Source: Eledone cirrhosa
Lineage: Eukaryota
Direction: 5' to 3'
DNA: 64,000 nt
Assembly: GCA_964016885.1 (NCBI GenBank)
Contig: OZ024750.1
Span: 41,416,001-41,480,000, forward strand
Of this stretch, positions 1 through 64,000 are shown in pieces (position 1 is the stretch's first letter; every line of letters begins with the position of its first letter). The position numbers and the translations under genes were made by a program. The notes below the pieces were generated by a model. The model saw nothing but the letters and a program-made list of their open reading frames with translations, had not been told where the DNA came from and did not search any database.

Positions 1-632
1 CTTCATCTTTTCTCTCAGAGTTGTAATGTCCAGTTGCTTGCAGGTTTGTGTTTTCCGGACCGCCTGTGCAAAGGAGGTACCAGTAGTGGGTTCGCTTTGT
101 TTGGTGTTATCGTTATTTTTTCCTTGGTTGGTGTTGTGACTATTGCTGTTATTGTCGTTGTTGTTTTTGTCTGCGTTTATGTGACTTTCTGGGTTTTCAT
201 CCATTTTTTCAAATTTTTCTTTTAATTCCGTGTTCCATGTTTCTTTTGCAGAAGTCAGGAGGGAAGACTTAGAGCCTTGTGCTTCTAGCTTCTCTGTATC
301 ACCTTTCTTAGGGGGCGTGGCTTTCACGTTAGGATGAGATGTGAAAATTCCGTCCATTTCTATTAGTTTGCCGTAATAAATTTTTAACTGGAAAATTCGC
401 CCCAAAAAGGGGCGAAAATAAATAAACTCAAAGTTTGACGACCAAGGCAAGGGGTTAACGTATATTACAGTATAAAAAATTAATCAAAACTCACTTTTTG
501 AGTAAGTAAATCCGACTCGGTAGCCGAGCTTGTTCACACACGTCAACACACGTCTCTCGTATACGAGATGTTATGTGAGATATTATGTGAGGCAAAGCCT
601 TTACTGTGAAAATACAATAGTATATATACAGT
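1..632 (-). mobile_element. Tx1-like non-LTR retrotransposon copy C: 5' part only (ORF1 N-terminus, 5' UTR, one MITE-derived spacer unit); continues beyond the left edge
   Basis: 1-632 is near-identical to the 5' portions of copies A (from ~5709) and B (from ~11495). ORF1 ATG is at 357. It abuts the 3' end of copy A at 633. Confidence 0.9.
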
Positions 633-869
633 GGTTTCTTTATTTGCCACTAGGGTACAAAAGGTAGGGACAGATACAAGGGGGGAAGTTTACATATAAT
701 TAACGAGTACAAAAATATAACAATGAAATAACAACAACAAACGAAGTCCTCAATAGGGAGGGGGCATTAACATGGGTCGCACACACCCCGGAAAAAATGT
801 GCAACCCTTCTCCTCAGGAGCACAAAGAGTAGGTGCTTCCCTCGTCTCCTCTTTTTCCTCTTCTTTCAC

Positions 870-3800
870 CTACAGGCTGATATAGAGAGAAGACCCATTC
901 ACTCTGGCCATTCTCCCTACTTTCATCCACCTTTCATAAAACTTGCTGGGGTAGAGCACCTCTCTCTCCATTCTGATCCTTCTTTTAAAATGGTATTTGA
1001 AAAAGAGGACCAGTTGTTGGCCGGAGAGAAAGGTGTCTGACTTCAGCCCTTTCAGCCTCGTCCACCATACAACTTCTTTAGCCATGGCTATCACACAGAG
1101 AAAAACCGCCTCTCCTTCGTTTTTGAAAGGGGGAGGCGGTTTGATCGTGACAATGGACTCGGTGGTCAACCGGATTGGTCCCACCCTCGACAGTAGTCGT
1201 TCCACATAGCCCCACAGGTCAGCAATGCCTGGGCAGTGTACGAATGCGTGCGCAACGGTTTCGTCATCATGCACGCATCTCGGACAGATCTTATTCAAAG
1301 GATCTCTACCCAGGCTCCCATGCCTGTGGAGCTTGTCTCGAACGGGTAGAGCCCCTCGGTAGCACTGCCAAGCCAGGGACTTTTGGAAGTTGTCCATCGG
1401 TCCAGGGCCAAACGTCCTACCGAACAGACTGGCCAGTTCATCTTCCTCCATGCCTAGAGCTTCTCCGAGAGCATCGTCGCACCTGCTGCGTACCAACCCT
1501 CTATAGAATGTCGAGGTGGAGTCTCCACTGATTGCCGGGTCCGCTTTCCAGAGGGCCGTGAGCGCCTGGGCACATTCAATGTGCCAGTCGCCCACTTTTC
1601 TCGGTCTTTGCTTGACCCAGGATTGCAGCTCGGTGAGCGAGACGAGTCTGGGAAAGGCTCGCCTCACAAACGGGGCCCACACCGGTTGACCGGTGAGGAA
1701 TACCTGGAGGTGCCGTAGCCTTAATGCGTGTTTACGCATCTGTAGCCACGGCATCCCCAGCCCTCCTTTCGAAGGGTGTTGACAGCAGATGGATCTCCTC
1801 ACCAAAGGGGTCCGCTTGTTCCAAAGAAATTGGAACAGCGCGCACTCCATTTTGGCGAGGCTTTTCACTGGGCAAGGCACGACGGTCAAGCGGTAGTAGA
1901 TGACGGATGCTATATAAGTATTCGCCACCTCCGCTCGACCTTTCAGGGATAGTTTGCACTGGGCCCACTTCTGGGTGAGTGCAAACACCCTGGCCGTTAC
2001 CTCGTTCCAGTTTTTCTCCACCTGGAGGTCTGGTCCGAACCAGACCCCAAGCAGCTTCACCGGGCCCTCCGTCCAGCGTCCGACGACGTCGTTGGAGGGC
2101 ATCGGTTTGCCTCTCCATGTTCCGAGTTGCAAACCGACGGACTTGTCCCGGTTCAGCTTGGCTCCTGTAAACCTTTCATATTCCTCCAGTAAGGTGCCGA
2201 TCTCACCGATTTGCGAGGTTTTCGACACCATTACTGTCACGTCATCGGCGTAGGCCGACGCCGCTTTCTGCAATCCCGGTTCCAAAGGGATGCCCTGCAA
2301 CCGCTCCAACTTCCGCAGTAGTGGCTCAAGAGCCAGCACATACAGTAGGGAGGAGAGAGGGCATCCCTGTCGGATGGATCGCATGATTTGGAACGGCTCC
2401 GAGAGGTGGCCGTTCACCTTGACCCTTGAGCAGACGTTGCTGCTGTGCATCGCAGAAATCCAACCCCTGAAAACGGGTCCGAAGCCTGCCGCCGCGAGCA
2501 CCGCATCCAGGTAACGATGGTCAACCCTATCGAAAGCTTTAGATTGATCCAAGTTGATCAGGGCCCCACCAAAGCCGGGTTCATTCCCTACCCTCTCTAT
2601 GATGTATCGCATAAGGTGGAGATTGTCGTGAATGGACCTGGACGGGATTGCGCATGTCTGCGCTTCTCCCACCAGGTTTCCAACGACAAGCGCCAACCTC
2701 TTCGCTAAGACCTTGGCCAAAATACTTAACTCTGTATTTAGCAGAGTTATGGGCCTGAAGTTACTTATGTCATCCCCCTTGTTCTCATCCTTCCTCACCA
2801 GCGTAACTACGCCCTTGGTCACAGAACTGGGAATTCTCCCGTTCTGCTGCCAGTTGCAGTAGACCGCTTCGAGGATATCGGAGAACAAGTCCGGCATCGC
2901 TACATATAGCTCGTATGGTAGACCATCGAGACCCGGGGATTTGCGTTTGCCGCATTGGCTCAGCGCCGCCCCTATCTCAGCAGCTGAAATCGTCCTTTCG
3001 CAGGACTTCGCCTCCGCGTCCGAGAGGCGCGGCAGACCGTCGAGGTATGGATTGAAATCCATAGTCTCACCCGGCGCGCCGCCCCTCTCGAACAGTCGTG
3101 CAAAGTGCCGCTGAAAGGCCGCACACATCTGCCCAGGTTCAAGGATCACACGCCCATCCTGGTCCTTCAAAGACCGAATCGTGGACTTGTTCCCACTTTT
3201 TGCCTCTGTCACTCGGGCCCAGCTTACAGCTTTGGCTCCCTCATTACCCAGAGCACGTATTTTACTCCTGACAACGCAGCCTTCATGCTTCACCTCAAAG
3301 AACTGGTCTAAGGCCATTCTTGATGCCAGCACGCCGGCTACATTGCCACTCCTAATCGCCTCTTCTACTCTATCTACTAATTCCCTTTCCGTCTTGTTCC
3401 TATCCCTTGCTAATTCCTGACTAAAACCTATCGATTCTATTCTAATTGCTCTCTTAAGAGAGCTCCACCACCTGTTGTTGACAATTGCCCCTGTCAAACT
3501 CTGCTTGACTAACGTGCTAATCCGTTTACTGTAAGCTTTGCTTCTCGGTAAGGACAAGTTCAGCTTCCAGTAACCGGGTCCCTGTCTATGGGTTCTATCA
3601 AGGTTGGCTATGCAGGTCACTAACTTGTGATCCGAATAGTCAACCATGAACATTTTTGGACAGCTAAATGTGTCCCTATCGTTCTCTCTAACTAGGACCC
3701 TATCTAGGTACGACCTAGATGTTCCACTGCGATTGGTCCACGTCCATAGTGGTACAGTCGGAAAATCTAGTCGATATCTATCGGCCAGGTCAAATCGGCC

Positions 3801-4307
3801 GATTAACCTTTTGAGGCTTTTACACCCCCCTCTATTGGCACATGCCCCTACATAGTCCCAACGTGCATCCAGGATACCATTCCAGTCCCCCACTAAAAGC
3901 AAGGAGCGGGACGTTCCCAGAAAAGTTTCCAGACGTTGGAAGTATTCCGGCCGCGCTGCCCAAAAAGGGGCGTACACAGCTATTAGTCTAAGGGCTCCAC
4001 TTTCACTACTGCCGACGTCTAAAACCACCAGTCGACCCTCCGGGTCCAGGTGCACCTTCTGTATGGCGAGGCCCAGGTGTTTTCGCAGCAGAACGACAAC
4101 TCCACCCCCACCCCCCGGTTGACAGAGAGATGCGAAGATCTCAAAGTCGTCGAAGAGGGGCGCCAGTTGGTGCTCGCTGCTGATCATGGACTCGCAAATA
4201 GCCATTACATCCATTCTATGCGACCTGAGATCGTTTAAAAGTTTGCCTTGTTTCCAAGACAGTCCCAGGCCACGTACATTCAGACACCCAACTCTTATAT
4301 CAGCCAT
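870..4307 (-). CDS. ORF2p: APE endonuclease, reverse transcriptase and C-terminal CCHC zinc finger (1145 aa)
   Basis: APE motifs CLNVRG, VYAP, GDWN, LDR, SDH. RT motifs PGLDG, FRPITLLN, DQSKAFD, QGCPLS, YADD. Also GGLG and C-terminal CPRC..ETVAHAFVHC, typical of L1/Tx1 ORF2. Confidence 0.96.
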   Translation of the reverse strand: MADIRVGCLNVRGLGLSWKQGKLLNDLRSHRMDVMAICESMISSEHQLAPLFDDFEIFASLCQPGGGGGVVVLLRKHLGLAIQKVHLDPEGRLVVLDVGSSESGALRLIAVYAPFWAARPEYFQRLETFLGTSRSLLLVGDWNGILDARWDYVGACANRGGCKSLKRLIGRFDLADRYRLDFPTVPLWTWTNRSGTSRSYLDRVLVRENDRDTFSCPKMFMVDYSDHKLVTCIANLDRTHRQGPGYWKLNLSLPRSKAYSKRISTLVKQSLTGAIVNNRWWSSLKRAIRIESIGFSQELARDRNKTERELVDRVEEAIRSGNVAGVLASRMALDQFFEVKHEGCVVRSKIRALGNEGAKAVSWARVTEAKSGNKSTIRSLKDQDGRVILEPGQMCAAFQRHFARLFERGGAPGETMDFNPYLDGLPRLSDAEAKSCERTISAAEIGAALSQCGKRKSPGLDGLPYELYVAMPDLFSDILEAVYCNWQQNGRIPSSVTKGVVTLVRKDENKGDDISNFRPITLLNTELSILAKVLAKRLALVVGNLVGEAQTCAIPSRSIHDNLHLMRYIIERVGNEPGFGGALINLDQSKAFDRVDHRYLDAVLAAAGFGPVFRGWISAMHSSNVCSRVKVNGHLSEPFQIMRSIRQGCPLSSLLYVLALEPLLRKLERLQGIPLEPGLQKAASAYADDVTVMVSKTSQIGEIGTLLEEYERFTGAKLNRDKSVGLQLGTWRGKPMPSNDVVGRWTEGPVKLLGVWFGPDLQVEKNWNEVTARVFALTQKWAQCKLSLKGRAEVANTYIASVIYYRLTVVPCPVKSLAKMECALFQFLWNKRTPLVRRSICCQHPSKGGLGMPWLQMRKHALRLRHLQVFLTGQPVWAPFVRRAFPRLVSLTELQSWVKQRPRKVGDWHIECAQALTALWKADPAISGDSTSTFYRGLVRSRCDDALGEALGMEEDELASLFGRTFGPGPMDNFQKSLAWQCYRGALPVRDKLHRHGSLGRDPLNKICPRCVHDDETVAHAFVHCPGIADLWGYVERLLSRVGPIRLTTESIVTIKPPPPFKNEGEAVFLCVIAMAKEVVWWTRLKGLKSDTFLSGQQLVLFFKYHFKRRIRMEREVLYPSKFYERWMKVGRMARVNGSSLYISL

Positions 4308-4328
4308 GTTGGTTAAAAGAGGAAGGAC

Positions 4329-6065
4329 CTACCTGTTCGGCTCCTGAGGAGCAGGTTGCACAATATCCATGGGCGTATTGGAGGGGTTGTTTGGAGGGGT
4401 GTTGTTCTGTGGTGGAGTGGGGGTGTTTGGTGAGGTGTGGGTGGGGAAACGTTTCAAGAGGACACGGTTATAGGGTCGAGTACATGTTTTCCCCACGTCC
4501 TCAGGAAAGTTCTCTCTTAGTTTTGCATAGGTGTCCATTGGGAGTCTTATCATTTTTAAATGCGGTTTGTTGGCCGCGCTTGCAAAGAATTGCCCTTCAG
4601 TTTCCACCGAAGGGTCTTTGTGTATTGTTTTTACTAGTTCTTTGTTATTTGTGTTAATGTATGTATACTGTTTTATTTGTGTTGTGTTTGTTTGTTGTTC
4701 TTGTGTGTGCTTACGTTTTGTTGTATGTGTTATGTTTTGGGGTGGGGCGGATTTTGTTTGTTCTGTTTGTTTTGTTTTTGTTGGTGGTTGTGTGTTTGTT
4801 TCGTTTATGTTCGAGTGGTGCTTTCTTTTTTTCCTTTTTACAGGTTGGAAGGGTTCCCCCTCTTCGTCACTAGGTGCCGTTTCAGCTGGGTCCTCGTCCG
4901 TGCTGTCGGGTAGTGGTGTATTTTGGGGTTTTGTTGTATTTGTGTGTGTTTTGGGAGTTGTTTTGGGTGGGGCCGTGTCTTGTGTTATTTTTCCGTGTTG
5001 TTTTTGTTGTTGTTGTTGTGGTGGTGGTGGTGGAGGTAGTGGTGGTGGCGGTGGTGGTGTGTGGGGTGTAGGCAAAAGAGCCTTTTTTTTTGTCAATTGA
5101 GGACAAGCAGCCCTTAGATGACCCCTGCTTGAACAGTAGTAACATATGGGCCTCCTACCCTCGGCTGAAATATATATAAATGTTTCTCCATCGAGGGACA
5201 GCCTCTGTGGTATTCTAGCTATTCGTTCTGGTCTCATTTGGACCAGAACCTCCACGCTCAAACCGCCGAAAACGTCTGTGGTGACTTCTCCTACTGAGAG
5301 GATTCCGTCCTCGTCTTCTAAAAATCCTGTTAGTACCCAGGAAATGCATGCATTTGGCCGGATTCCGGAGACCCTTATCTTCTGCGTTCTTTTCCCTAAA
5401 TATGTGGGGAAAAATGTATGTAGCTTGGAAACAATTGGCGCCACAGAGGATTTCCTGGCCGTCAATTGATCCTTCATTAGGACCGTTATATTCCCATAGA
5501 GTGGCCCTTTTTGTATGAACGATATATCACTCCACACATTTTTTAGGACCAGCTCAATCTCTTTTTGGGATAATTGAGCTGGTTTCCTTGTTATGTTGGA
5601 AATTGTTCTGAAAGATATCGTTCTTAGCGTCGTGTCTCTTTTGATTTCTTGTGGGGAGGTGATTGTGAAGTCTCCTCCTTCTTTGAAAGTTACATACTGT
5701 TTCGCTTCCTTCATCTTTTCTCTCAGAGTTGTAATGTCCAGTTGCTTGCAGGTTTGTGTTTTCCGGACCGCCTGTGCAAAGGAGGCACCAGTAGTGGGTT
5801 CGCTTTGTTTGGTGCTATCGTTATTTTTTCCTTGGTTGGTGTTGTGACTATTGCTGTTATTGTCGTTGTTGTTTTTGTCTGCGTTTATGTGACTTTCTGG
5901 GTTTTCACCCATTTTTACAAATTTTTCTTTTAATTCCGTGTTCCATGTTTCTTTTGCAGAAGTCAGGAGGGAAGACTTAGAGCCTTGTGCTTCTAGCTTC
6001 TCTGTATCACCTTTCTTAGGGGGCGTGGCTTTCACGTTAGGATGAGATGTGAAAATTCCGTCCAT
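4329..6065 (-). CDS. ORF1p: gag-like nucleic-acid-binding protein with one CCHC zinc knuckle (~578 aa from first ATG)
   Basis: CYYCSSRGHLRAAC (CX2CX4HX4C), SFAQAV motif, poly-Pro/Gln tract and basic KRKKRK. The ORF track starts at a TTG (6158); the first ATG is at 6065. Confidence 0.88.
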   Translation of the reverse strand: MDGIFTSHPNVKATPPKKGDTEKLEAQGSKSSLLTSAKETWNTELKEKFVKMGENPESHINADKNNNDNNSNSHNTNQGKNNDSTKQSEPTTGASFAQAVRKTQTCKQLDITTLREKMKEAKQYVTFKEGGDFTITSPQEIKRDTTLRTISFRTISNITRKPAQLSQKEIELVLKNVWSDISFIQKGPLYGNITVLMKDQLTARKSSVAPIVSKLHTFFPTYLGKRTQKIRVSGIRPNACISWVLTGFLEDEDGILSVGEVTTDVFGGLSVEVLVQMRPERIARIPQRLSLDGETFIYISAEGRRPICYYCSSRGHLRAACPQLTKKKALLPTPHTPPPPPPLPPPPPPQQQQQKQHGKITQDTAPPKTTPKTHTNTTKPQNTPLPDSTDEDPAETAPSDEEGEPFQPVKRKKRKHHSNINETNTQPPTKTKQTEQTKSAPPQNITHTTKRKHTQEQQTNTTQIKQYTYINTNNKELVKTIHKDPSVETEGQFFASAANKPHLKMIRLPMDTYAKLRENFPEDVGKTCTRPYNRVLLKRFPTHTSPNTPTPPQNNTPPNNPSNTPMDIVQPAPQEPNR

Positions 6066-6648
6066 TTCTATTAGTTTGCCGTAATAAGCTTTTAACTGGA
6101 AAATTCGCCCCAAAAAGGGGCGAAGATAAATAAACTCAAAGTTTGACGACCAAGGCAAGGGGTTAACGTATATTACAGTATAAAAAATTAATCAAAACTC
6201 ACTTTTGAGTAAGTAAATCCGACTCGGTAGCCGAGCTTGTTCACACACGTCAACACACGTCTCTCGTATACGAGATGTTATGTGAGATATTATGTGAGGT
6301 GAAGCCTTTACTGTGAAAATACAATAGTATATATAGAGTAATGTAAATGTTATGTGAGATATTATGTGAGGTAAAGGCTTTACTGTGAAAATACAATAAT
6401 ATATATAGAGTGGTTTCTTTATTTGCCACTAGGGCACAAAAGGTAGGGACAGATACAAGGGGGGAAGTTTACATATAATTAACGAGTACAAAAATATAAC
6501 AATGAAATAACAACAACAAACGAAGTCCTCAATAGGGAGGGGGCATTAACATGGGTCGCACACACCCCGGAAAAAATGTGTAACCCTTCTCCTCAGGAGC
6601 ACAAAGAGTAGGTGCTTCCCTCGTCTCCGCTTTTTCCTCTTCTTTCAC

Positions 6649-9600
6649 CTACAGGCTGATATAGAGAGAAGACCCATTCACTCTGGCCATTCTCCCTACT
6701 TTCACCCACCTTTCATAAAACTTGCTGGGGTAGAGCACCTCTCTCTCCATTCTGATCCTTCTTTTAAAATGGTATTTGAAAAAGGGGACCAGTTGTTGGC
6801 CGGAGAGAAAGGTGTCTGACCTCAGCCCTTTCAGCCTCGTCCACCATACAACTTCTTTAGCCATGGCTACCACACAGAGAAAAACCGCCTCTCCTTCGTT
6901 TTTGAAAGGGGGAGGCGGTTTGATCGTGACAATGGACTCGGTGGTCAACCGGATTGGTCCCACCCTCGACAGTAGTCGTTCCACATAGCCCCACAGGTCA
7001 GCAATGCCTGGGCAGTGTACGAATGCGTGCGCAACGGTTTCGTCATCATGCACGCATCTCGGACAGATCTTATTCAAAGGATCTCTACCCAGGCTCCCAT
7101 GCCTGTGGAGCTTGTCTCGAACGGGTAGAGCCCCTCGGTAGCACTGCCAAGCCAGGGACTTTTGGAAGTTGTCCATCGGTCCAGGGCCAAACGTCCTACC
7201 GAACAGACTGGCCAGTTCATCTTCCTCCATGCCTAGAGCTTCTCCGAGAGCATCGTCGCACCTGCTGCGTACCAACCCTCTATAGAATGTCGAGGTGGAG
7301 TCTCCACTGATTGCCGGGTCCGCTTTCCAGAGGGCCGTGAGCGCCTGGGCACATTCAATGTGCCAGTCGCCCACTTTTCTCGGTCTTTGCTTGACCCAGG
7401 ATTGCAGCTCGGTGAGCGAGACGAGTCTGGGAAAGGCTCGCCTCACAAACGGGGCCCACACCGGTTGACCGGTGAGGAATACCTGGAGGTGCCGTAGCCT
7501 TAATGCGTGTTTACGCATCTGTAGCCACGGCATCCCCAGCCCTCCTTTCGAAGGGTGTTGACAGCAGATGGATCTCCTCACCAAAGGGGTCCGCTTGTTC
7601 CAAAGAAATTGGAACAGCGCGCACTCCATTTTGGCGAGTCTTTTCACTGGGCAAGGCACGACGGTCAAGCGGTAGTAGATGACGGATGCTATATAAGTAT
7701 TCGCCACCTCCGCTCGACCTTTCAGGGATAGTTTGCACTGGGCCCACTTCTGGGTGAGTGCAAACACCCTGGCCGTTACCTCGTTCCAGTTTTTCTCCAC
7801 CTGGAGGTCTGGTCCGAACCAGACCCCAAGCAGCTTCACCGGGCCCTCCGTCCAGCGTCCGACGACGTCGTTGGAGGGCATCGGTTTGCCTCTCCATGTT
7901 CCGAGTTGCAAACCGACGGACTTGTCCCGGTTCAGCTTGGCTCCTGTAAACCTTTCATATTCCTCCAGTAAGGTGCCGATCTCACCGATTTGCGAGGTTT
8001 TCGACACCATTACTGTCACGTCATCGGCGTAGGCCGACGCCGCTTTCTGCAATCCCGGTTCCAAAGGGATGCCCTGCAACCGCTCCAACTTCCGCAGTAG
8101 TGGCTCAAGAGCCAGCACATACAGTAGGGAGGAGAGAGGGCATCCCTGTCGGATGGATCGCATGATTTGGAACGGCTCCGAGAGGTGGCCGTTCACCTTG
8201 ACCCTTGAGCAGACGTTGCTGCTGTGCATCGCAGCAATCCAACCCCTGAAAACGGGTCCGAAGCCTGCCGCCGCGAGCACCGCATCCAGGTAACGATGGT
8301 CAACCCTATCGAAAGCTTTAGATTGATCCAAGTTGATCAGGGCCCCACCAAAGCCGGGTTCATTCCCTACCCTCTCTATGATGTATCGCATAAGGTGGAG
8401 ATTGTCGTGAATGGACCTGGACGGGATTGCGCATGTCTGCGCTTCTCCCACCAGGTTTCCAACGACAAGCGCCAACCTCTTCGCTAACACCTTGGCCAAA
8501 ATCTTTAACTCTGTATTTAGCAGAGTTATGGGCCTGAAGTTACTTATGTCATCCCCCTTGTTCTCATCCTTCCTCACCAGCGTAACTACGCCCTTGGTCA
8601 CAGAACTGGGAATTCTCCCGTTCTGCTGCCAGTTGCAGTAGACCGCTTCGAGGATATCGGAGAACAAGTCCGGCATCGCTACATATAGCTCGTATGGTAG
8701 ACCATCGAGACCCGGGGATTTGCGTTTGCCGCATTGGCTCAGCGCCGCCCCTATCTCAGCAGCTGAAATCGTCCTTTCGCAGGACTTCGCCTCCGCGTCC
8801 GAGAGGCGCGGCAGACCGTCGAGGTATGGATTGAAATCCATAGTCTCACCCGGCGCGCCGCCCCTCTCGAACAGTCGTGCAAAGTGCCGCTGAAAGGCCG
8901 CACACATCTGCCCAGGTTCAAGGATCACACGCCCATCCTGGTCCTTCAAAGACCGAATCGTGGACTTGTTCCCACTTTTTGCCTCTGTCACTCGGGCCCA
9001 GCTCACAGCTTTGGCTCCCTCATTACCCAGAGCACGTATTTTACTCCTGACAACGCAGCCTTCATGCTTCACCTCAAAGAACTGGTCTAAGGCCATTCTT
9101 GATGCCAGCACGCCGGCTACATTGCCACTCCTAATCGCCTCTTCTACTCTATCTACTAATTCCCTTTCCGTCTTGTTCCTATCCCTTGCTAATTCCTGAC
9201 TAAAACCTATCGATTCTATTCTAATTGCTCTCTTAAGAGAGCTCCACCACCTGTTGTTGACAATTGCCCCTGTCAAACTCTGCTTGACTAACGTGCTAAT
9301 CCGTTTACTGTAAGCTTTGCTTCTCGGTAAGGACAAGTTCAGCTTCCAGTAACCGTGTCTCCTGTCTATGGGTTCTATCAAGGTTGGCTATGCAGGTCAC
9401 TAACTTGTGATCCGAATAGTCAACCATGAACATTTTTGGACAGCTAAATGTGTCCCTATCGTTCTCTCTAACTAGGACCCTATCTAGGTACGACCTAGAT
9501 GTTCCACTGCGATTGGTCCACGTCCATAGTGGTACAGTCGGAAAATCTAGTCGATATCTATCGGCCAGGTCAAATCGGCCGATTAACCTTTTGAGGCTTT

Positions 9601-10087
9601 TACACCCCCCTCTATTGGCACATGCCCCTACATAGTCCCAACGTGCATCCAGGATACCATTCCAGTCCCCCACTAAAAGCAAGGAGCGGGACGTTCCCAG
9701 AAAAGTTTCCAGACGTTGGAAGTATTCCGGCCGCGCTGCCCAAAAAGGGGCGTACACAGCTATTAGTCTAAGGGCTCCACTTTCACTACTGCCGACGTCT
9801 AAAACCACCAGTCGACCCTCCGGGTCCAGGTGCACCTTCTGTATGGCGAGGCCCAGGTGTTTTCGCAGCAGAACGACAACTCCACCCCCACCCCCCGGTT
9901 GACAGAGGGATGCGAAGATCTCAAAGTCGTCGAAGAGGGGCGCCAGTTGGTGCTCGCTGCTGATCCTGGACTCGCAAATAGCCATTACATCCATTCTATG
10001 CGACCTGAGATCGTTTAAAAGTTTGCCTTGTTTCCAAGACAGTCCCAGGCCACGTACATTCAGACACCCAACTCTTATATCAGCCAT
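6649..10087 (-). pseudogene. ORF2 of copy B, split by a +1 frameshift at ~9355-9362
   Basis: Split into ORFs 9305-10087 (APE) and 6649-9381 (RT). The + strand reads aaccgtgtctcctgtc here versus aaccgggtccctgtc in copy A. Confidence 0.9.
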
Positions 10088-10108
10088 GTTGGTTAAAAGA
10101 GGAAGGAC

Positions 10109-11851
10109 CTACCTGTTCGGCTCCTGAGGAGCATGTTGCACAATATCCATGGGCGTATTGGAGGGGTTGTTTGGTGGGGTGTTGTTCTGTGGTGGAGTGG
10201 GGGTGTTTGGTGAGGTGTGGGTGGGGAAACGTTTCAAGAGGACGCGGTTATAGGGTCGAGTACATGTTTTCCCCACGTCCTCAGGAAAGTTCTCTCTTAG
10301 TTTTGCATAGGTGTCCATTGGGAGTCTTATCATTTTTAAATGCGGTTTGTTGGCCGCGCTTGCAAAGAATTGTCCTTCAGTTTCCACCAAAGGGTCTTTG
10401 TGTATTGTTTTTACTAGTTCTTTGTTATTTGTGTTAATGTATGTATACTGTTTTATTTGTGTTGTGTTTGTTTGTTGTTCTTGTGTGTGCTTACGTTTTG
10501 TTGTATGTGTTATGTTTTGGGGTGGGGCGGATTTTGTTTGTTCTGTTTGTTTTGTTTTTGTTGGTGGTTGTGTGTTTGTTTCGTTTATGTTCGAGTGGTG
10601 CTTTCTTTTTTTCCTTTTTACAGGTTGGAAGGGTTCCCCCTCTTCGTCACTAGGTGCCGTTTCCGCTGGGTCCTCGTCCGTGCTGTCGGGTAGTGGTGTA
10701 TTTTGGGGTTTTGTTGTATTTGTGTGTGTTTTGGGAGTTGTTTTGGGTGGGGCCGTGTCTTGTGTTATTTTTCCCTGTTGTTTTTGTTGTTGTTGTGGTG
10801 GTGGTGGTGGAGGTGGTGGTGGTGGTGGTGGTGGCGGTGGTGGTGTGTGGGGTGTAGGCAAAAGAGCCTTTTTTTTTGTCAATTGAGGACAAGCAGCCCT
10901 TAGATGACCCCTGCTTGAACAGTAGTAACATATGGGCCTCCTACCCTCGGCTGAAATATATATAAATGTTTCTCCATCGAGGGACACCCTCTGTGGTATT
11001 CTAGCGATTCGTTCTGGTCTCATTTGGACCAGAACCTCCACGCTCAAACCGCCGAAAACGTCTGTGGTGACTTCTCCTACTGAGAGGATTCCGTCCTCGT
11101 CTTCTAAAAACCCTGTTAGTACCCAGGAAATGCATGCATTTGGCCGGATTCCGGAGACCCTTATCTTCTGCGTTCTTTTCCCTAAATATGTGGGGAAAAA
11201 TGTATGTAGCTTGGAAACAATTGGTGCCACAGAGTATTTCCTGGCCGTCAATTGATCCTTCATTAGGACCGTTATATTCCCATAGAGTGGCCCTTTTTGT
11301 ATGAACGATATATCACTCCACACATTTTTTAGGACCAGCTCAATCTCTTTTTGGGATAATTGAGTTGGTTTCCTTGTTATGTTGGAAATTGTTCTGAAAG
11401 ATATCGTTCTTAGCGTCGTGTCTCTTTTGATTTCTTGTGGGGAGGTGATTGTGAAGTCTCCTCCTTCTTTGAAAGTTACATACTGTTTCGCTTCCTTCAT
11501 CTTTTCTCTCAGAGTTGTAATGTCCAGTTGCTTGCAGGTTTGTGTTTTCCGGACCGCCTGTGCAAAGGAGGTACCAGTAGTGGGTTCGCTTTGTTTGGTG
11601 TTATCGTTATTTTTTCCTTGGTTGGTGTTGTGACTATTGCTGTTATTGTCGTTGTTGTTTTTGTCTGCGTTTCTGTGACTTTCTGGGTTTTCACCCATTT
11701 TTTCAAATTTTTCTTTTAATTCCGTGTTCCATGTTTCTTTTGCAGAAGTCAGGAGGGAAGACTTAGAGCCTTGTGCTTCTAGCTTCTCTGTATCACCTTT
11801 CTTAGGGGGCGTGGCTTTCACGTTAGGATGAGATGTGAAAATTCCGTCCAT
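10109..11851 (-). CDS. ORF1p of copy B (intact, CCHC knuckle)
   Basis: Nearly identical to 4329-6065; first ATG at 11851. Confidence 0.88.
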   Translation of the reverse strand: MDGIFTSHPNVKATPPKKGDTEKLEAQGSKSSLLTSAKETWNTELKEKFEKMGENPESHRNADKNNNDNNSNSHNTNQGKNNDNTKQSEPTTGTSFAQAVRKTQTCKQLDITTLREKMKEAKQYVTFKEGGDFTITSPQEIKRDTTLRTISFRTISNITRKPTQLSQKEIELVLKNVWSDISFIQKGPLYGNITVLMKDQLTARKYSVAPIVSKLHTFFPTYLGKRTQKIRVSGIRPNACISWVLTGFLEDEDGILSVGEVTTDVFGGLSVEVLVQMRPERIARIPQRVSLDGETFIYISAEGRRPICYYCSSRGHLRAACPQLTKKKALLPTPHTPPPPPPPPPPPPPPPPQQQQKQQGKITQDTAPPKTTPKTHTNTTKPQNTPLPDSTDEDPAETAPSDEEGEPFQPVKRKKRKHHSNINETNTQPPTKTKQTEQTKSAPPQNITHTTKRKHTQEQQTNTTQIKQYTYINTNNKELVKTIHKDPLVETEGQFFASAANKPHLKMIRLPMDTYAKLRENFPEDVGKTCTRPYNRVLLKRFPTHTSPNTPTPPQNNTPPNNPSNTPMDIVQHAPQEPNR

Positions 11852-12048
11852 TTCTATTAGTTTGCCGTAATAAATTTTTAACTGGAAAATTCGCCCCAAA
11901 AAGGGGCGAAAATAAATAAACTCAAAGTTTGACGACCAAGGCAAGGGGTTAACGTATATTACAGTATAAAAAATTAATCAAAACTCACTTTTTGAGTAAG
12001 TAAATCCGACTCGGTAGCCGAGCTTGTTCACACACGTCAACACACGTC

Positions 12049-12220
12049 TCTCGTATACGAGATGTTATGTGAGATATTATGTGAGGTAAAGCCTTTACTG
12101 TGAAAATACAATAGTATATATAGAGTAATGTAAATGTTATGTGAGATATTATGTGAGGTAAAGGCTTTACTGTGAAAATACAATAATATATATACAGTAC
12201 TGTAAATGGTAAAGGGTTAA
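12049..12220 (-). mobile_element. Left end of a TTAA/piggyBac-type MITE, with an internally duplicated ~71-bp unit, flanking the Tx1 array
   Basis: The minus strand reads TTAA CCCTTTACCATTTACAGTACTGTATATATATTATTGTATTTTCACAGTAAAGCCTTTACCTCACATAAT, which aligns with 47939-48040. Confidence 0.75.
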
Positions 12221-13082: not shown

Positions 13083-13138
13083 GTTTGAATAAAGGGAGTA
13101 CAGGAACTCTGAGGAGGAGTAGGGGGATTTAAGGAGGG

Positions 13139-13169
<31 letters not shown>

Positions 13170-13255
13170 CCTTATATATATATATATTAAAATAACACAT
13201 TAAAGTTTAAGCAAAGACTCTTTGCTTAAACTTTAATCTGTTATTTTAATATGTA

Positions 13256-14228: not shown

Positions 14229-14586
14229 TACGATATTAAACAAATGGAAACTATATTTATAAAACCATATTTATTTCGTTATATATATTTCTGGGATATC
14301 ATATTAAAAATATGGTATGCCTTCCTCAGACAGGAAGTTGCATTATTATAAGGTATGTCAAAATTATTTATAAAACAGCTTATGTATTGTATTTTGTCTG
14401 AGGAAGGCATACCATATTTTTAATATGATATCCCAGAAATATATATAACAAAATAAATATGGTTTTATAAATATAGTTTCCATTTGTTTAATATCGTAAA
14501 CCTACTCCAGAAACTGTTGAGTGCTTTTATATCAGTTATAAAATATTCACTCGTTGTAACCCAACAATTTTAAATAAAACTTTTGC
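14229..14586 (+). mobile_element. Penelope-like terminal-repeat remnant with inverted 5' copy (family H1)
   Basis: Inverted arms 14229-14332 and 14395-14498, flanked by (TA)n. Homologous to 22269-22526 and 31581-32052. Confidence 0.7.
14390..14455 (+). ncRNA. Minimal type I hammerhead ribozyme (H1)
   Basis: TATTTTGT-CTGAGGA-(stem II)-GAAA-TATATA-TA-ACAAAATA, with an 8-bp stem I and a palindromic stem III; the base of stem II is mismatched. Confidence 0.65.
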
Positions 14587-15374: not shown

Positions 15375-18300
15375 AACAACCCATACACTTACCTTCACTA
15401 CTTCACCTTGCCTCACTACAGCCCATACACTTACCATCACTACTTTACCCTGCCTCACTACAACCCATACACTTACCATCACTACTTCACCCTTCCTCAC
15501 TACAACCCATACACTTACCATCACTACTTCACCCTTCCTCACTACAACCCATACACTTACCATCACTACTTTACCCTGCCTCACTACAACCCATACACTT
15601 ACCATCACTACTTTACCCTGCCTCACTACAACCCATACACTTACCATCACTACTTCACCCTTCCTCACTACAACCAATACACTTACCATCACTACTTCAC
15701 CCTTCCTCACTACAACCCATACACTTACCATCACTACTTTACCGTTCCTCACTACAACCCATACACTTACCATCACTACTTTACCCTTCCTCACTACAAC
15801 CCATACACTTACCATCACTACTTTACACTTCCTTACTACAACCCATACACTTACCATCACTACTTCCTCACCTCAACCCATACACTTACCATCACTACTT
15901 CACCTTTCCTCACTACAACCCATACACTTACCATCACTACTTCCTCACTACAACCCATACACTTACCATCACTACTTCACCCTTCCTCACTACAACCCAT
16001 ACACTTACCATCACTACTTCACCTTTCCTCACTACAACCCATACACTTACCATCACTACTTCACCCTTCCTCACTACAACCCATACACTTACCATCACTA
16101 CTTCACCCTTCCTCACTACAACATATACACTTACCATCACTACTTCACCCCTCCTCACTACAACCCATACACTTACCATCACTACTTCACCCTTCCTCAC
16201 TACAACCCATACACTTACCATCACTACTTCACCCTTCCTCACTACAACATATACACTTACCATCACTACTTTACCGTTCCTCACTACAACCCATACACTT
16301 ACCATCACTACTTCACCCCTCCTCACTACAACCCCTACACTTACCATCGTTACTTCACCCTTCCTCACTACAACCCATACACTTACCATCACTACTTCAC
16401 CCTTCCTCACTACAACCCATACACTTACCATCACTACTTCACTCTTCCCCACTACAACCTATACACTTACCATCACTACTTTACCGTTCCTCACTACAAC
16501 CCATACACTTACCATCACTACTTCCTGACTACAACCCATACACTTACCATCCCTACTTCCTCACTACAACCCATACACTTACCATCACTACTTCACCCTT
16601 CCCCACTACAACATATACACTTACCATCACTACTTCACCCCTCCTCACTACAACCCATACACTTACCATCACTACTTCCTCACTACAACCCATACACTTA
16701 CCATCACTACTTCACCCTTCCTCACTACAACATATACACTTACCATCACTACTTCACTCTTCCCCACTACAACCCATACACTTACCATCACTACTTTACC
16801 CTTCCTCACTACAACATATACACTTACCATCACTACTTCACCCCTCCTCACTACAACCCATACACTTACCATCACTACTTCCTCACTACAACCCATACAC
16901 TTACCATCACTACTTCACCCTTCCCCACTACAACATATACACTTACCATCACTACTTCACCCCTCCTCACTACAACCCATACACTTACCATCACTACTTC
17001 TTCACTACAACCCATACACTTACCATCACTACTTCACCCTTCCTCACTACAACCCATACACTTACCATCACTACTTCACCCTTCCTCACTACAACCCATA
17101 CACTTACCATCACTACTTCACCCTTCCTCACTACAACCCATACACTTACCATCACTACTTTACCCTGCCTCACTACAACCCATACACTTACCATCACTAC
17201 TTTACCCTGCCTCACTACAACCCATACACTTACCATCACTACTTCACCCTTCCTCACTACAACCAATACACTTACCATCACTACTTCACCCTTCCTCACT
17301 ACAACCCATACACTTACCATCACTACTTCACTCTTCCCCACTACAACCCATACACTTACCATCACTACTTTACCCTTCCTCACTACAACCCATACACTTA
17401 CCATCACTACTTTACACTTCCTTACTACAACCCATACACTTACCATCACTACTTCCTCACCTCAACCCATACACTTACCATCACTACTTCACCTTTCCTC
17501 ACTACAACCCATACACTTACCATCACTACTTCCTCACTACAACCCATACACTTACCATCACTACTTCACCCTTCCTCACTACAACCCATACACTTACCAT
17601 CACTACTTCACCGTTCCTCACTACAACCCATACACTTACCATCACTACTTCACCCTTCCTCACTACAACCCATACACTTACCATCACTACTTCACCCTTC
17701 CTCACTACAACATATACACTTACCATCACTACTTCACCCCTCCTCACTACAACCCATACACTTACCATCACTACTTCACCCTTCCTCACTACAACCCATA
17801 CACTTACCATCACTACTTCACCCTTCCTCACTACAACATATACACTTACCATCACTACTTTACCGTTCCTCACTACAACCCATACACTTACCATCACTAC
17901 TTCACCCCTCCTCACTACAACCCATACACTTACCATCGTTACTTCACCCTTCCTCACTACAACCCATACACTTACCATCACTACTTCCTGACTACAACCC
18001 ATACACTTACCATCACTACTTCACCCCTCCTCACTACAACCCATACACTTACCATCACTACTTTACCCTGCCTCACTACAACCCATACACTTACCATCAC
18101 TACTTCACCCTTCCTCACTACAACCCATACACTTACCATCACTACTTCACTCTTCCCCACTACAACCTATACACTTACCATCACTACTTTACCGTTCCTC
18201 ACTACAACCCATACACTTACCATCACTACTTCCTGACTACAACCCATACACTTACCATCACTACTTCCTCACTACAACCCATACACTTACCATCACTACT

Positions 18301-21259
18301 TCACCCTTCCCCACTACAACATATACACTTACCATCACTACTTCACCCCTCCTCACTACAACCCATACACTTACCATCACTACTTCCTCACTACAACCCA
18401 TACACTTACCATCACTACTTCACCCTTCCTCACTACAACATATACACTTACCATCACTACTTCACTCTTCCCCACTACAACCCATACACTTACCATCACT
18501 ACTTTACCCTTCCTCACTACAACATATACACTTACCATCACTACTTCACCCCTCCTCACTACAACCCATACACTTACCATCACTACTTTACCGTTCCTCA
18601 CTACAACCCATACACTTACCATCACTACTTCACCCCTCCTCACTACAACCCATACACTTACCATCACTACTTCACCCCTCCTCACTACAACCCATACACT
18701 TACCATCACTACTTCACCCCTCCTCACTACAACCCATACACTTACCATCGTTACTTCACCCTTCCTCACTACAACCCATACACTTACCATCACTACTTCA
18801 CCCTTCCTCACTACAACCCATACACTTACCATCACTACTTCACTCTTCCCCACTACAACCTATACACTTACCATCACTACTTTACCGTTCCTCACTACAA
18901 CCCATACACTTACCATCACTACTTCCTGACTACAACCCATACACTTACCATCACTACTTCCTCACTACAACCCATACACTTACCATCACTACTTCACCCT
19001 TCCCCACTACAACATATACACTTACCATCACTACTTCACCCCTCCTCACTACAACCCATACACTTACCATCACTACTTCCTCACTACAACCCATACACTT
19101 ACCATCACTACTTCACCCTTCCTCACTACAACATATACACTTACCATCACTACTTCACTCTTCCCCACTACAACCCATACACTTACCATCACTACTTTAC
19201 CGTTCCTCACTACAACCCATACACTTACCATCACTACTTCACCTTTCCTCACTACAACCCATACACTTACCATCACTACTTTACCCTTCCTCACTACAAC
19301 ATATACACTTACCATCACTACTTCACCCCTCCTCACTACAACCCATACACTTACCATCACTACTTTACCGTTCCTCACTACAACCCATACACTTACCATC
19401 ACTACTTCACCCCTCCTCACTACAACCCATACACTTACCATCACTACTTCACCCCTCCTCACTACAACCCATACACTTACCATCACTACTTCACCCCTCC
19501 TCACTACAACCCATACACTTACCATCGTTACTTCACCCTTCCTCACTACAACCCATACACTTACCATCACTACTTCACCCTTCCTCACTACAACCCATAC
19601 ACTTACCATCACTACTTCACTCTTCCCCACTACAACCTATACACTTACCATCACTACTTTACCGTTCCTCACTACAACCCATACACTTACCATCACTACT
19701 TCCTGACTACAACCCATACACTTACCATCACTACTTCCTCACTACAACCCATACACTTACCATCACTACTTCACCCTTCCCCACTACAACATATACACTT
19801 ACCATCACTACTTCACCCCTCCTCACTACAACCCATACACTTACCATCACTACTTCCTCACTACAACCCATACACTTACCATCACTACTTCACCCTTCCC
19901 CACTACAACATATACACTTACCATCACTACTTCACCCCTCCTCACTACAACCCATACACTTACCATCACTACTTCCTCACTACAACCCATACACTTACCA
20001 TCACTACTTCACCCTTCCTCACTACAACATATACACTTACCATCACTACTTCACTCTTCCCCACTACAACCCATACACTTACCATCACTACTTCACCCTT
20101 CCCCACTACAACATATACACTTACCATCACTACTTCACCCCTCCTCACTACAACCCATACACTTACCATCACTACTTCCTCACTACAACCCATACACTTA
20201 CCATCACTACTTTACCCTTCCTCACTACAACATATACACTTACCATCACTACTTCACCCCTCCTCACTACAACCCATACACTTACCATCACTACTTTACC
20301 GTTCCTCACTACAACCCATACACTTACCATCACTACTTCACCCCTCCTCACTACAACCCATACACTTACCATCACTACTTCACCCCTCCTCACTACAACC
20401 CATACACTTACCATCACTACTTCACCCCTCCTCACTACAACCCATACACTTACCATCACTACTTCACCCCTCCTCACTACAACCCATACACTTACCATCA
20501 CTACTTCACCCCTCCTCACTACAACCCATACACTTACCATCACTACTTCACCCCTCCTCACTACAACCCATACACTTACCATCACTACTTTACCGTTCCT
20601 CACTACAACCCATACACTTACCATCACTACTTCACCCCTCCTCACTACAACCCATACACTTACCATCACTACTTCACCCCTCCTCACTACAACCCATACA
20701 CTTACCATCACTACTTCACCCCTCCTCACTACAACCCATACACTTACCATCACTACTTCACCCCTCCTCACTACAACCCATACACTTACCATCACTACTT
20801 CACCCCTCCTCACTACAACCCATACACTTACCATCACTACTTCACCCCTCCTCACTACAACCCATACACTTACCATCACTACTTCACCCCTCCTCACTAC
20901 AACCCATACACTTACCATCACTACTTCACCCCTCCTCACTACAACCCATACACTTACCATCACTACTTCACCCCTCCTCACTACAACCCATACACTTACC
21001 ATCACTACTTCACCCCTCCTCACTACAACCCATACACTTACCATCACTACTTTACCGTTCCTCACTACAACCCATACACTTACCATCACTACTTCACCCC
21101 TCCTCACTACAACCCATACACTTACCATCACTACTTCACCCCTCCTCACTACAACCCATACACTTACCATCACTACTTCACCCCTCCTCACTACAACCCA
21201 TACACTTACCATCACTACTTCACCCCTCCTCACTACAACCCATACACTTACCATCACTA
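15375..21259. repeat. 42-bp minisatellite/satellite (ACTACAACCCATACACTTACCATCACTACTTCACCCTTCCTC) with a 35-bp deletion variant
   Basis: About 5.9 kb tandem array; the + strand is almost devoid of G. Confidence 0.97.
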
Positions 21260-27241: not shown

Positions 27242-27905
27242 CATGCATACATACATATATATACACATGTATATATATATGAAAGCTGCAAGTGGAGAGA
27301 TGCTGTGCTAAGAAAGACTTGTCCAACCCATGCTAGCCTGGAAAAACTGATATAAAAACGATGCTGGTGATGAGGAGTATGATGATGATGATATATATCA
27401 GAAGATCCCGTTAAGGGTGAAAGCAGCGATTCTTTGCTTAAACTTTAATCTGTTATTTTAATAAATATTTGCTCTACGGTTCTTATATATCTGATATATA
27501 TTTATCCTTATCGAGCCCTCTTTGGATTTTAGTCTTCAAATTTATTATTATTACTATATATATATATATATACATATATCCAGTTTGCTTCTTTGCAATA
27601 ATTTATTTATTTATCAAATTTTATTTTTTTTTTTTTGTTGAGACAAACATTTTGATTCAAATTATATTTTATTATTTATATTTTTTTTATTTTGCATCTT
27701 TTATATTTTTAACAGATTTTTTGTTTGTTTTTCGTGTTTGTTTTCTGTTGGTTTTCTTCTTGATTTTTCCGGTTCTTATATTCTGACATTTAGAATTAAT
27801 AAATCTGAGATGTTTTCAGAAATCAAAATCTGTTTTTGAATTGAAAATTTGATCAGAAAACTAAATAAAAGAAATGAGAATTTTGTCTAAATTAAAGTTT
27901 TCATT

Positions 27906-31541: not shown

Positions 31542-31579
<38 letters not shown>

Positions 31580-31711
31580 TGCAAAAGTTCTATTTAAAAT
31601 TGTTGGGATACAACAAGTAAATATTTTTATAACTGATATAAAGCACTCGACAAGTATTTGGAGTAGATATACGATATTAATAAATGGAAACTATATTTAT
31701 AAAACCATATC

Positions 31712-31776
31712 TATTTCATTATACATATTTCAGGGATACCAAATTAAATTATGGTATGCCTTCATCAGACAAAATA
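31712..31776 (-). ncRNA. Minimal type I hammerhead ribozyme (H1), inverted copy
   Basis: Reverse complement of 31943-32007. Confidence 0.72.
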
Positions 31777-31942
31777 CAATATATAACAGTTTTACAAATA
31801 AGCTTTGACGTACCCTATTAAAATGCAACCATTGTTTTTGGAAGTCATCCGGATAGTCCGGATAGTCCGGATGACTTCCAAAAACAATGGTTGCATTTTA
31901 ATAGGGTACGTCAAAGCTTATTTGTAAAACTGTTATATATTG

Positions 31943-32007
31943 TATTTTGTCTGATGAAGGCATACCATAATTTAATTTGGTATCCCTGAAATATGTATAA
32001 TGAAATA
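31943..32007 (+). ncRNA. Minimal type I hammerhead ribozyme (H1)
   Basis: TATTTTGT-CTGATGA-AGGCATACCA..TGGTATCCCT-GAAA-TATGTA-TA-ATGAAATA. Confidence 0.72.
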
Positions 32008-32046
32008 GATATGGTTTTATAAATATAGTTTCCATTTATTAATATC

Positions 32047-32084
<38 letters not shown>

Positions 32085-32088
<4 letters not shown>

Positions 32089-32240
32089 TAAAATAACAGA
32101 TTAAAGTTTAAACTTTAATCTGTTATTTTAATAATTATTTGCTCTAGGGTTCTTATATATTTGATATATATTTGATATATATTTTTCCTTATCGAGCCCT
32201 CTTTGGATTTTAGTCTTCAAATTTATTATTATTACCATAT
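32085..32240 (+). repeat. Short element beginning with a perfect 50-bp palindrome (32085-32134)
   Basis: Same family as 13184 and 27431. Confidence 0.7.
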
Positions 32241-32317
32241 ATAAATATATATATATATATCCCATGTATGATGATACCAATCACTGGGTTTATAAGCCCC
32301 ATTATTAGACTACATTT

Positions 32318-32500
32318 GGTGGATTGGAGGTATCGTTAGAGGGTCGGACGCCATGCTTTCCAGCATAGTTACGTCCCTTTACGATCTGAGTTCAAATCCC
32401 ACCGAGGTTGACTTTGCCTTTCATCCTTACGGGGTCGATAAAATAAAGTACCAGTAATGCACTGGATAATTGCTGGCCTTGTGCCTAAAGTAGAAACAAT
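32318..32500 (+). mobile_element. SINE family N
   Basis: Near-identical to 14901-15088. Confidence 0.78.
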
Positions 32501-47942: not shown

Positions 47943-48139
47943 CCCTTTAACATTTACGTTACTCTATATATCCTATTGTATTTTCATGGTAAATGCTTTA
48001 CCTCACATAATTATTTCACATAATATCGAATCTATGAGATTTTGAAAGTATTTATTTTGAAAACAATACCTTAACATCAGTTTGAGCCAGTTACAGCCAG
48101 TTTCAACAGAGAATTCTGGCCAGATTGAACATTAAAGGG
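47943..48139. mobile_element. 197-bp piggyBac-type MITE
   Basis: TTAA on both sides (47939-42, 48140-43). TIRs CCCTTTAACATT and CCCTTTAATGTT; the CA/TG difference fits CpG decay. Confidence 0.8.
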
Positions 48140-63200: not shown

Positions 63201-64000
63201 GTATATCTCAGCTGTGGTGGGGTGTGACAGACTCTACACCCCAGTCTAGGTGGTATATCTCAGCTGGGAGTGACAGACTCTACACCCCAGTCTAGAGGGT
63301 ATATCTCAGCTGTGGTAAGGAGTGACAGACTCTAGACCCCAGTCTAGGTGGTATATCTCAGCTGTGGTGGGGACTGACAGACTCTACACCCCAGTCTAGG
63401 TGGTATATCTCAGCTGGGAGTGACAGACTCTACACCCCAGTCCAGGTGGTATATTTCAGCTGTGGTAAGGAGTGACAGACTCTACACCCAGGTCTAGGTG
63501 GTATATCTCAGCTGTGGTGGGGAGTGACAGAGTCTACACCCCAGTCTTGGTGGTATATCTCAGCTGTGGCAGGGAGTGACAGACTCTACACCCCAGTCTA
63601 GGTGGTATAACTCAGCTGGGAGTGACAGACTCTACACCCCAGTCTAAATGGTATATCTCAGCTGTGGTAGGCAATGAAAGACTCTACACCCCAGTCTAGG
63701 TGGTATATCTCAGCTGTGGTAGGGAGTAACAGACTCTACACCCCAGTCTAGGTGGTATATCTCAGCTGTGGTGGGGAGTGACAGACTCCACACCCCAGTC
63801 TAGGTGGCATATCTCAGCTGTGGTGGGGACTGACAGACTCTACACCCCAGTCTAGGTGGTACATCTCAGCTGTGGTAGGGGGTGACAGACTCTACACCCC
63901 AGTCTAGGTGGTATATCTCAGCTGTGGTAGGGAGTGACAGACTCTACACCCCAGTCCAGGTGGTATATCTCCACTGTGGTAGGGAGTGACAGACTCTACA
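48300..64000. repeat. 52-bp satellite (GTGACAGACTCTACACCCCAGTCTAGGTGGTATATCTCAGCTGTGGTAGGGA) with a 46-bp variant; runs off the window
   Basis: At least 15.7 kb of tandem array (~300 units) with recurring variant patterns. Confidence 0.98.

Follow-up and report, generated by a model that had tools for sequence, protein, structure and literature searches.

A long interspersed nuclear element of Eledone cirrhosa that sits almost solely at one position in the 72-bp repeat of a piggyBac-type MITE

The window analysed here comprises 64,000 nucleotides of the Eledone cirrhosa genome (GCA_964016885.1, contig OZ024750.1, positions 41,416,001 to 41,480,000), and its first 12.2 kb hold three head-to-tail copies, all on the minus strand, of one long interspersed nuclear element (LINE), at 6412-12061, at 633-6274 and from 567 leftwards. 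The copies are seated in a MITE (miniature inverted-repeat transposable element), which on the minus strand begins with a TTAA target duplication (12217-12220), an 18-bp terminal repeat (12199-12216; its family form agrees with one end of an autonomous piggyBac element at 17 of 18 bases) and the first copy of an internal 72-bp unit (12127-12198). A 65-bp unit that lacks its last 7 bases (12062-12126, minus strand) then abuts the 5' end of LINE copy 1. Beyond the 3' junction of copy 1 at 6411/6412, a 72-bp unit (6340-6411) and a 65-bp unit (6275-6339) precede copy 2, and a single 65-bp unit (568-632) separates copy 2 from copy 3, all on the minus strand, so that two units lie upstream of copy 1, two upstream of copy 2 and one upstream of copy 3. 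Only the 5' part of copy 3 (1-567, minus strand) falls within the window; the copy extends 5082 bp beyond the left edge, after which come six units and the MITE body. An empty single-unit MITE of the same family lies on the plus strand at 47943-48139. A sequence-only reading of the window had correctly given this MITE TTAA on both sides, and had described 3' junctions at 632/633 and 6411/6412 that join the element end AATAAAGAAACC to ACT(G/C)TATATATA, as they do. The match of about 95 bp that it drew between the array flank and the empty MITE is real but shorter (84 bp at 84.5% identity, or 89 bp at 85.4% when the flank is included), and the insertion placed 18 bp inside the MITE end begins, for copy 1, 155 bp inside, owing to tandem 72-bp units that had been overlooked. 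To the left of the window the expected MITE flank is present, with copy 3 followed by its six units and MITE body as far as MITE position 161; however, the predicted AAAGGG-TTAA end was not found in the 900 bases inspected, where a (TTC)n run interrupts the MITE after that position.

The LINE is a 5.64-kb L1/Tx1-type element with two open reading frames (ORFs), a CCHC-bearing ORF1 and an ORF2 with an N-terminal apurinic endonuclease (APE) domain, a reverse transcriptase (RT) and a C-terminal zinc finger, which is the layout of the L1/Tx1 group. Both ORFs are open in copy 2 (633-6274, minus strand, 5642 bp), which has a 5' untranslated region of 209 bp and a 3' untranslated region of 237 bp ending in AATAAAGAAACC. 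Its ORF1 (4329-6065, minus strand, 578 aa) had no Pfam match and carries a single CX2CX4HX4C knuckle at residue 308, a CCHC zinc knuckle in ORF1 being a feature of the Tx1 clade. Its ORF2 (870-4307, minus strand, 1145 aa) matches PF03372 (APE endonuclease), PF00078 (RT) and PF13966 (zf-RVT). Copy 1 (6412-12061, minus strand) is also full length, with ORF1 open at 10109-11851 and ORF2 split into 9305-10087 and 6649-9096. Human L1 ORF2p is the top solved-structure match for ORF2 (residues 4-857, E 4e-52), R2 being far weaker, and the closest named protein, with 67% identity across the RT region, comes from Argonauta hians. No named Tx1 reference occurred among the 120 homologs listed or the 10 clusters looked up, and membership in the Tx1 clade, as assigned from domain layout alone, is putative. 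The first 12 bases of the element (window 12050-12061) form a perfect palindrome and also resemble a third copy of the 12-bp sub-repeat of the unit; when the 5' region of the element was folded, without a shuffled control, a hairpin formed at this palindrome.

Across the genome, the LINE is confined to the same position as in the window. A 29-mer marking the 3' end of the family had 282 matches genome-wide, 276 of which continue NN-ACT(C/G), and reversed-pattern controls for this 3'-end target tetramer gave no matches genome-wide, which excludes chance. Likewise, 296 of the 302 genome-wide matches to a 21-mer at the 5' end of the element are preceded by CACATAANAT. Four of the six off-pattern 3' ends were inspected: L152, L176 and L321 are copies of sister families, and L178 is on target with 2 bp lost. 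Among the loci that were extracted, 111 distinct 3' ends include 109 that are on target, with the other two belonging to sister-family copies picked up by a lax match, and none of 120 distinct 5' ends lacks an upstream unit; these loci were picked partly by best score and partly by position in pattern lists ending before the junction, and the genome-wide counts are independent of how they were picked. The LINE, present in about 300 copies of which about 98% are on target, thus sits almost solely at CATT|ACTCTATAT, a single position within the MITE's 72-bp tandem unit, as expected of a sequence-specific LINE. The genome-wide constancy of the junctions bears out the proposal that a sequence-specific L1/Tx1-type LINE inserts into a TTAA piggyBac-type MITE. 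Generic (TA)n targeting was rejected, as the 3' flanks of extracted copies run on into the MITE unit.

The MITE is approximately 200-225 bp long, is flanked by TTAA, has CCC...GGG termini and contains no ORF, as is characteristic of non-autonomous piggyBac elements. A 32-base pattern spanning the tandem junction between units had 28,775 exact matches in the genome and a 35-base pattern at the MITE left end had 3,889, both of which are lower bounds since only exact matches were counted. By script count, 23 of the first 30 MITE left ends carry one unit, and 19 complete single-unit MITEs are a median of 14.5% apart. The first 100 junction matches listed fall within the first 5.6 Mb of contig C1, the first 100 left ends listed are spread across 197 Mb, and 35 of the 39 LINE copies listed on contigs C1-C4 are found within the outer tenth at one end of a contig. 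The internal 72-bp repeat has expanded, inside the MITE, into subtelomeric satellite arrays, and the usual LINE site is the junction between internal units rather than the MITE terminus that the sequence-only reading had named. Just one full-length copy (L181) and one truncated copy (L191) were seen in which MITE body comes right after a single unit downstream and the upstream side has no more than one unit; because the latter, a 43-bp LINE fragment, occupies a single-unit MITE at its end-adjacent site, that site is usable. A search with PF13843 gave 125 matches, and 14 of the 30 best loci represent one 2.57-kb piggyBac family (L258-L272), whose 14 copies are a median of 1.0% apart, with some pairs identical and several open frames of 561 aa; judged from these sequences, this autonomous family is likely to have been recently active. 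One of its ends matches the MITE left end at 17 of 18 bases and the other end is similar, but the likeness stops exactly at the start of the first unit, and ACTCTATAT is absent from both strands of all 14 copies, so that the LINE site leaves the MITE ends untouched and is missing from the transposase donor. The LINE as creator of the satellite was considered and not adopted, since the satellite unit includes the 7 bases that are missing at the LINE junction, and some arrays have no visible LINE (L198, L199). The array at L198 comprises 25 or more units of a 60-bp variant, the 1.5 kb examined containing no LINE, and in the 3' flank of L193 the unit array inverts within the first downstream unit, at a short palindrome around AAAG-CTTT.

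The LINE family is young and mostly full length. The 94 full-length copies differ by a median of 33.5 substitutions in 5619 columns (a median of 0.6% from the majority base), and 22 of them have both ORFs open. The two junction bases are CC in 80 copies (median 25.5 substitutions) and TC in 13 (median 74), and they travel with the element. Six 5'-truncated copies have the target on both flanks and distinct breakpoints, at element positions 4691, 4955, 5322, 5592, 5593 and 5600, and their left flanks run past the site by 9, 16, 10, 1, 6 and 2 bases, respectively. Because these on-target copies differ in breakpoint and carry duplications of 1-16 bp, the insertions are independent, as required of a LINE that targets its site by sequence.

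Of the 97 copies listed, 27 lie within 8 kb of a neighbour on the same strand, and 24 spacers between array copies hold from 1 to 20 units each. A second three-copy array of the same LINE lies 14 kb to the left of the window array (C10:41379526-41396666, L033-L035); it runs in the opposite direction and occupies a MITE of its own. Neighbouring copies in the window are 37 and 40 substitutions apart and have at most one rare variant in common, and neighbour pairs at five other loci have 0-1 rare variants in common. Since tandem neighbours are not each other's closest kin, the window array grew by repeated insertion, and the kinship of copies agrees with the earlier suggestion that arrays are built mainly in this way. 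A clade of four members includes copies 1 and 3 of the window and one copy of the neighbouring inverted array, a hint of local hopping or conversion. That the element stacks by regenerating its target, as had been supposed, is not needed, because each array already holds many junctions at which further copies could insert, with spacers of 1 to 20 units.

Full-length copies join after AACAT, with the last 7 bases of the upstream unit missing; before the junction lie 23 repeat-derived bases that hardly vary. At unit positions 43-65 beside the LINE, 9 of 2760 bases differ from the reference, whereas the other upstream units differ at 395 of 17365 (Fisher p 1e-15); positions 13-38 beside the LINE show the usual variation (0.0375 versus 0.0358). 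Similarly, variants specific to a locus recur in the 5' unit in 18 of 39 cases at positions 1-38 and in none of 7 at positions 39-65. The simplest reading of this pattern is that the LINE RNA likely bears a leader at its 5' end, and the last 23 or so bases of the 65-bp unit at 12062-12126 are likely to derive from that RNA. A universal long target duplication was rejected: over positions 1-38, the 5' unit is identical to the first unit downstream at just 3 of 53 informative loci, which is not above controls. Contigs from four public runs were examined over window 5400-6300, where three gave coverage and one gave none; those crossing the 5' junction reach fewer than 31 bases on the repeat side and were not counted as bridging.

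Taken with what was observed directly (the junction sequences and their genome-wide constancy, the truncated on-target copies, and the kinship within arrays), it is quite probable that a young L1/Tx1-type LINE inserts at CATT|ACTCTATAT by target-primed reverse transcription, with an RNA 5' end that likely bears at least about 23 bases of the upstream unit. The steps that we infer are the nicking site of the APE domain, the RNA leader and the annealing of the cDNA. The APE domain would nick the bottom strand at the unit junction, and transcripts starting upstream of CTCGTATACG would supply a leader of approximately 23 or more target bases. The cDNA end would then anneal to the upstream unit, giving the precise full-length junction without 7 target bases, while cDNAs that stop early would join after a downstream cut in the top strand, giving the duplications of 1-16 bp. 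Full-length insertion would hence favour MITEs with an already duplicated unit, and the many sites per array would let copies stack, with unequal exchange sometimes duplicating blocks later.

Several observations weigh against this account. Slippage between tandem units after insertion would likewise make variants fade toward the LINE boundary, and the 8 of 120 5' ends that have one unit directly after the MITE left end (counting L097, with a partial extra unit) would also be explained by an RNA that carries a whole unit. Simple upstream annealing fits poorly at L181, where the one unit on each side has 5 rare variants in common with the other, and at L194, where a whole reference-type unit follows non-MITE DNA and diverged units lie downstream; copying from downstream or a longer leader would fit these two loci better. 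In one five-copy array, non-adjacent pairs are 6 and 15 substitutions apart, which indicates a later block duplication. Three other 5'-incomplete copies (L110, L311, L319), excluded from the count of truncated copies, have differing structures that are likely to reflect later deletions, insertions or rearrangements. At L110:5224 the usual 5' unit end is fused directly to element position 3866, by an internal deletion or a template jump, and a joint of this type could seed a non-autonomous derivative.

Other explanations of the constant junctions and of the arrays differ in how much of this evidence they can absorb. One chance insertion followed by tandem duplication would agree with adjacent copies being 99% alike, and with the block duplication in the five-copy array, but is refuted by a junction common to approximately 280 loci on many contigs and by window neighbours that are not each other's closest kin. 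It is also very unlikely that piggyBac transposase spread one LINE-in-MITE composite, or a few, with their constant junctions inherited, although the young autonomous piggyBac family with its nearly identical copies and 561-aa frames shares its ends with the MITE and most LINE copies are full length. Against such spread, truncated copies differ in breakpoint, the closest copies at different loci (4-11 substitutions) differ in MITE ends and unit numbers, no cross-locus pair has more than 6 private variants in common, of 13 loci scored (2 of which have no real left end) only 3 retain both MITE ends intact, and single-unit MITEs, at a median of 14.5% apart, are far older than the LINE. Among the 94 full-length copies, no shared LINE lesion and unit order was found at loci with different TTAA flanks, and truncation points all differ; this comparison covers about a third of the LINE copies. 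Movement of the composite by piggyBac transposase, which the sequence-only reading had raised, is thus possible but unsupported, with no cross-locus pair having many private variants in common.

A closer competitor keeps the same targeting but has the RNA carry the whole 65-bp unit, which would anneal to a short top-strand overhang and add one unit per insertion, amounting to true regeneration of the target. No full-length copy among the 120 lacks an upstream unit, as this would require, and the 8 of 120 with one unit after the MITE end come near the 12% share of end-adjacent sites (3889 versus 28775 exact matches). In addition, one-unit spacers occur, and at L124, L180 and L194 the 5' unit is near the reference type while the downstream units have local variants. 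However, rare local variants extend up to position 34-35 in the 5' unit at L101, L106, L129 and L181, and a full-length copy is almost never found in a single-unit MITE, even though such MITEs make up 23 of the 30 left ends sampled. On balance, a whole-unit leader seems improbable, and insertion with a shorter leader that anneals to the upstream unit is preferred.

Related LINEs in the same genome use other targets. A shorter 20-mer (360 matches) also captures these sister families. Among 50 of their 3' ends, (ATCT)n-like repeats follow 45, (AT)n follows 2, (ATT/ATA)n follows another 2, and the remaining one continues into LINE sequence; the MITE follows none of them. For the 32 sister copies in which enough of ORF2 is present, identity to the window protein is 73-83%. 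Sister LINEs (L141-L188) are spread along large contigs, not near contig ends, and are often stacked beside fragments of related copies (e.g., L146, L148, L150). In phylogenetic trees, the MITE-targeting copies adjoin the ATCT-targeting L148 and are nested among microsatellite-targeting rows (support 91, and 80/83 in a second tree), but a microsatellite-only clade was not rejected by the approximately unbiased (AU) test (p 0.26); the target likely switched from microsatellite to MITE, although these trees do not show the direction. Only 1 of 11 residues differs from L148 in the L1-type target-recognition hairpin, which was placed by alignment to human L1 ORF2p and the loop limits in PMC1950540, whereas the other endonuclease loops differ more. 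The MITE unit and the (ATCT)n targets both contain a TCTAT core. A switch from (ATCT)n to the MITE satellite made mainly through target sequence captured on the RNA ends, with little endonuclease change, and with RNA-target pairing setting the site and making insertions almost all full length, is a speculative and rather improbable idea; if true, it would mean that an APE-type LINE can be retargeted by changing its RNA ends. A MITE-targeting LINE and (ATCT)n-targeting sisters about 80% identical in ORF2 within one genome make it testable whether a target changes via the endonuclease or via captured RNA sequence.

The closest known likeness is Tx1L and Tx1D of Xenopus, where the Tx1L site lies within an internal tandem repeat of Tx1D and insertion produces a duplication of approximately 23 bp. 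There, too, the site of an APE-type LINE within a non-autonomous TTAA DNA transposon is fixed; the X. laevis transposon is termed piggyBac in PMC4494074 (see also PMC1950540, PMC6719617). The present system differs in its octopod host, the 72-bp unit of a MITE of about 220 bp, the 7-bp loss, the likely captured leader and the microsatellite-targeting sisters; the likeness is one of published description, and may reflect shared ancestry or convergence. Crocodilian Tx1-Mar prefers Mariner-N4_AMi and Tx1-9_AMi prefers Harbinger, and the Tx1 families Kibi and Koshi prefer (TC)n and (TTC)n (PMC4494074), which likewise combines a preference for DNA transposons with microsatellite-preferring relatives. 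Compared to these preferences, the LINE described here is about 98% on target, and its copies are about 99% identical (85-87% to the consensus for Tx1-Mar; PMC4494074), with sisters at 73-83% in ORF2 in the same genome. In Drosophila, melanogaster-type R1 carries upstream target on its RNA and leaves a precise 9-bp deletion in full-length copies and duplications in truncated ones, and other R1s form tandem arrays at the target (PMC2718515). Precise target loss in full-length copies, duplications in truncated ones and tandem arrays are thus common to both, but R1 belongs to the R1 clade and inserts in 28S ribosomal DNA, whereas this LINE is L1/Tx1-type, loses 7 bp and uses a MITE-derived satellite. 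By these analogies, its target type would resemble that of Tx1L and its 5' joining that of melanogaster R1; it is not a new category.

LINEs that target DNA transposons and MITE-borne satellites are both already in print. An internal MITE segment has been amplified into tandem arrays in Xmix/Xstir (PMC6004289) and in DTC84 of the clam Donax (PMC3879986); the available text of these accounts mentions no targeting LINE, and Xmix is Kolobok-type whereas the MITE here is piggyBac-type. For Octopus vulgaris, PMC13282606 counts 13 recent L1-Tx1 families, and the word target is absent from its available text. No account of the present LINE family was found in the open literature, with Repbase, subscription journals, the original Tx1L papers and the supplementary target lists of PMC4494074, among which a mollusc or piggyBac case may occur, outside the search. 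The transposon-targeting LINEs of frogs and crocodilians are old or loosely specific, while this one is young, about 98% on target and mostly full length. It forms part of a three-tier system in which an autonomous piggyBac has a satellite-bearing MITE, and the LINE uses the satellite while sparing the transposase gene.

Elsewhere in the window, a minisatellite with a 42-bp period (15376-21259) yields long spurious open frames, and a satellite with a 52-bp period occupies at least 15.7 kb (48300-64000), starting 160 bp to the right of the empty MITE. Other short inverted-repeat elements lie at 14229-14498 and 13130-13255, with further copies at 27391-27576 and 31557-32413.

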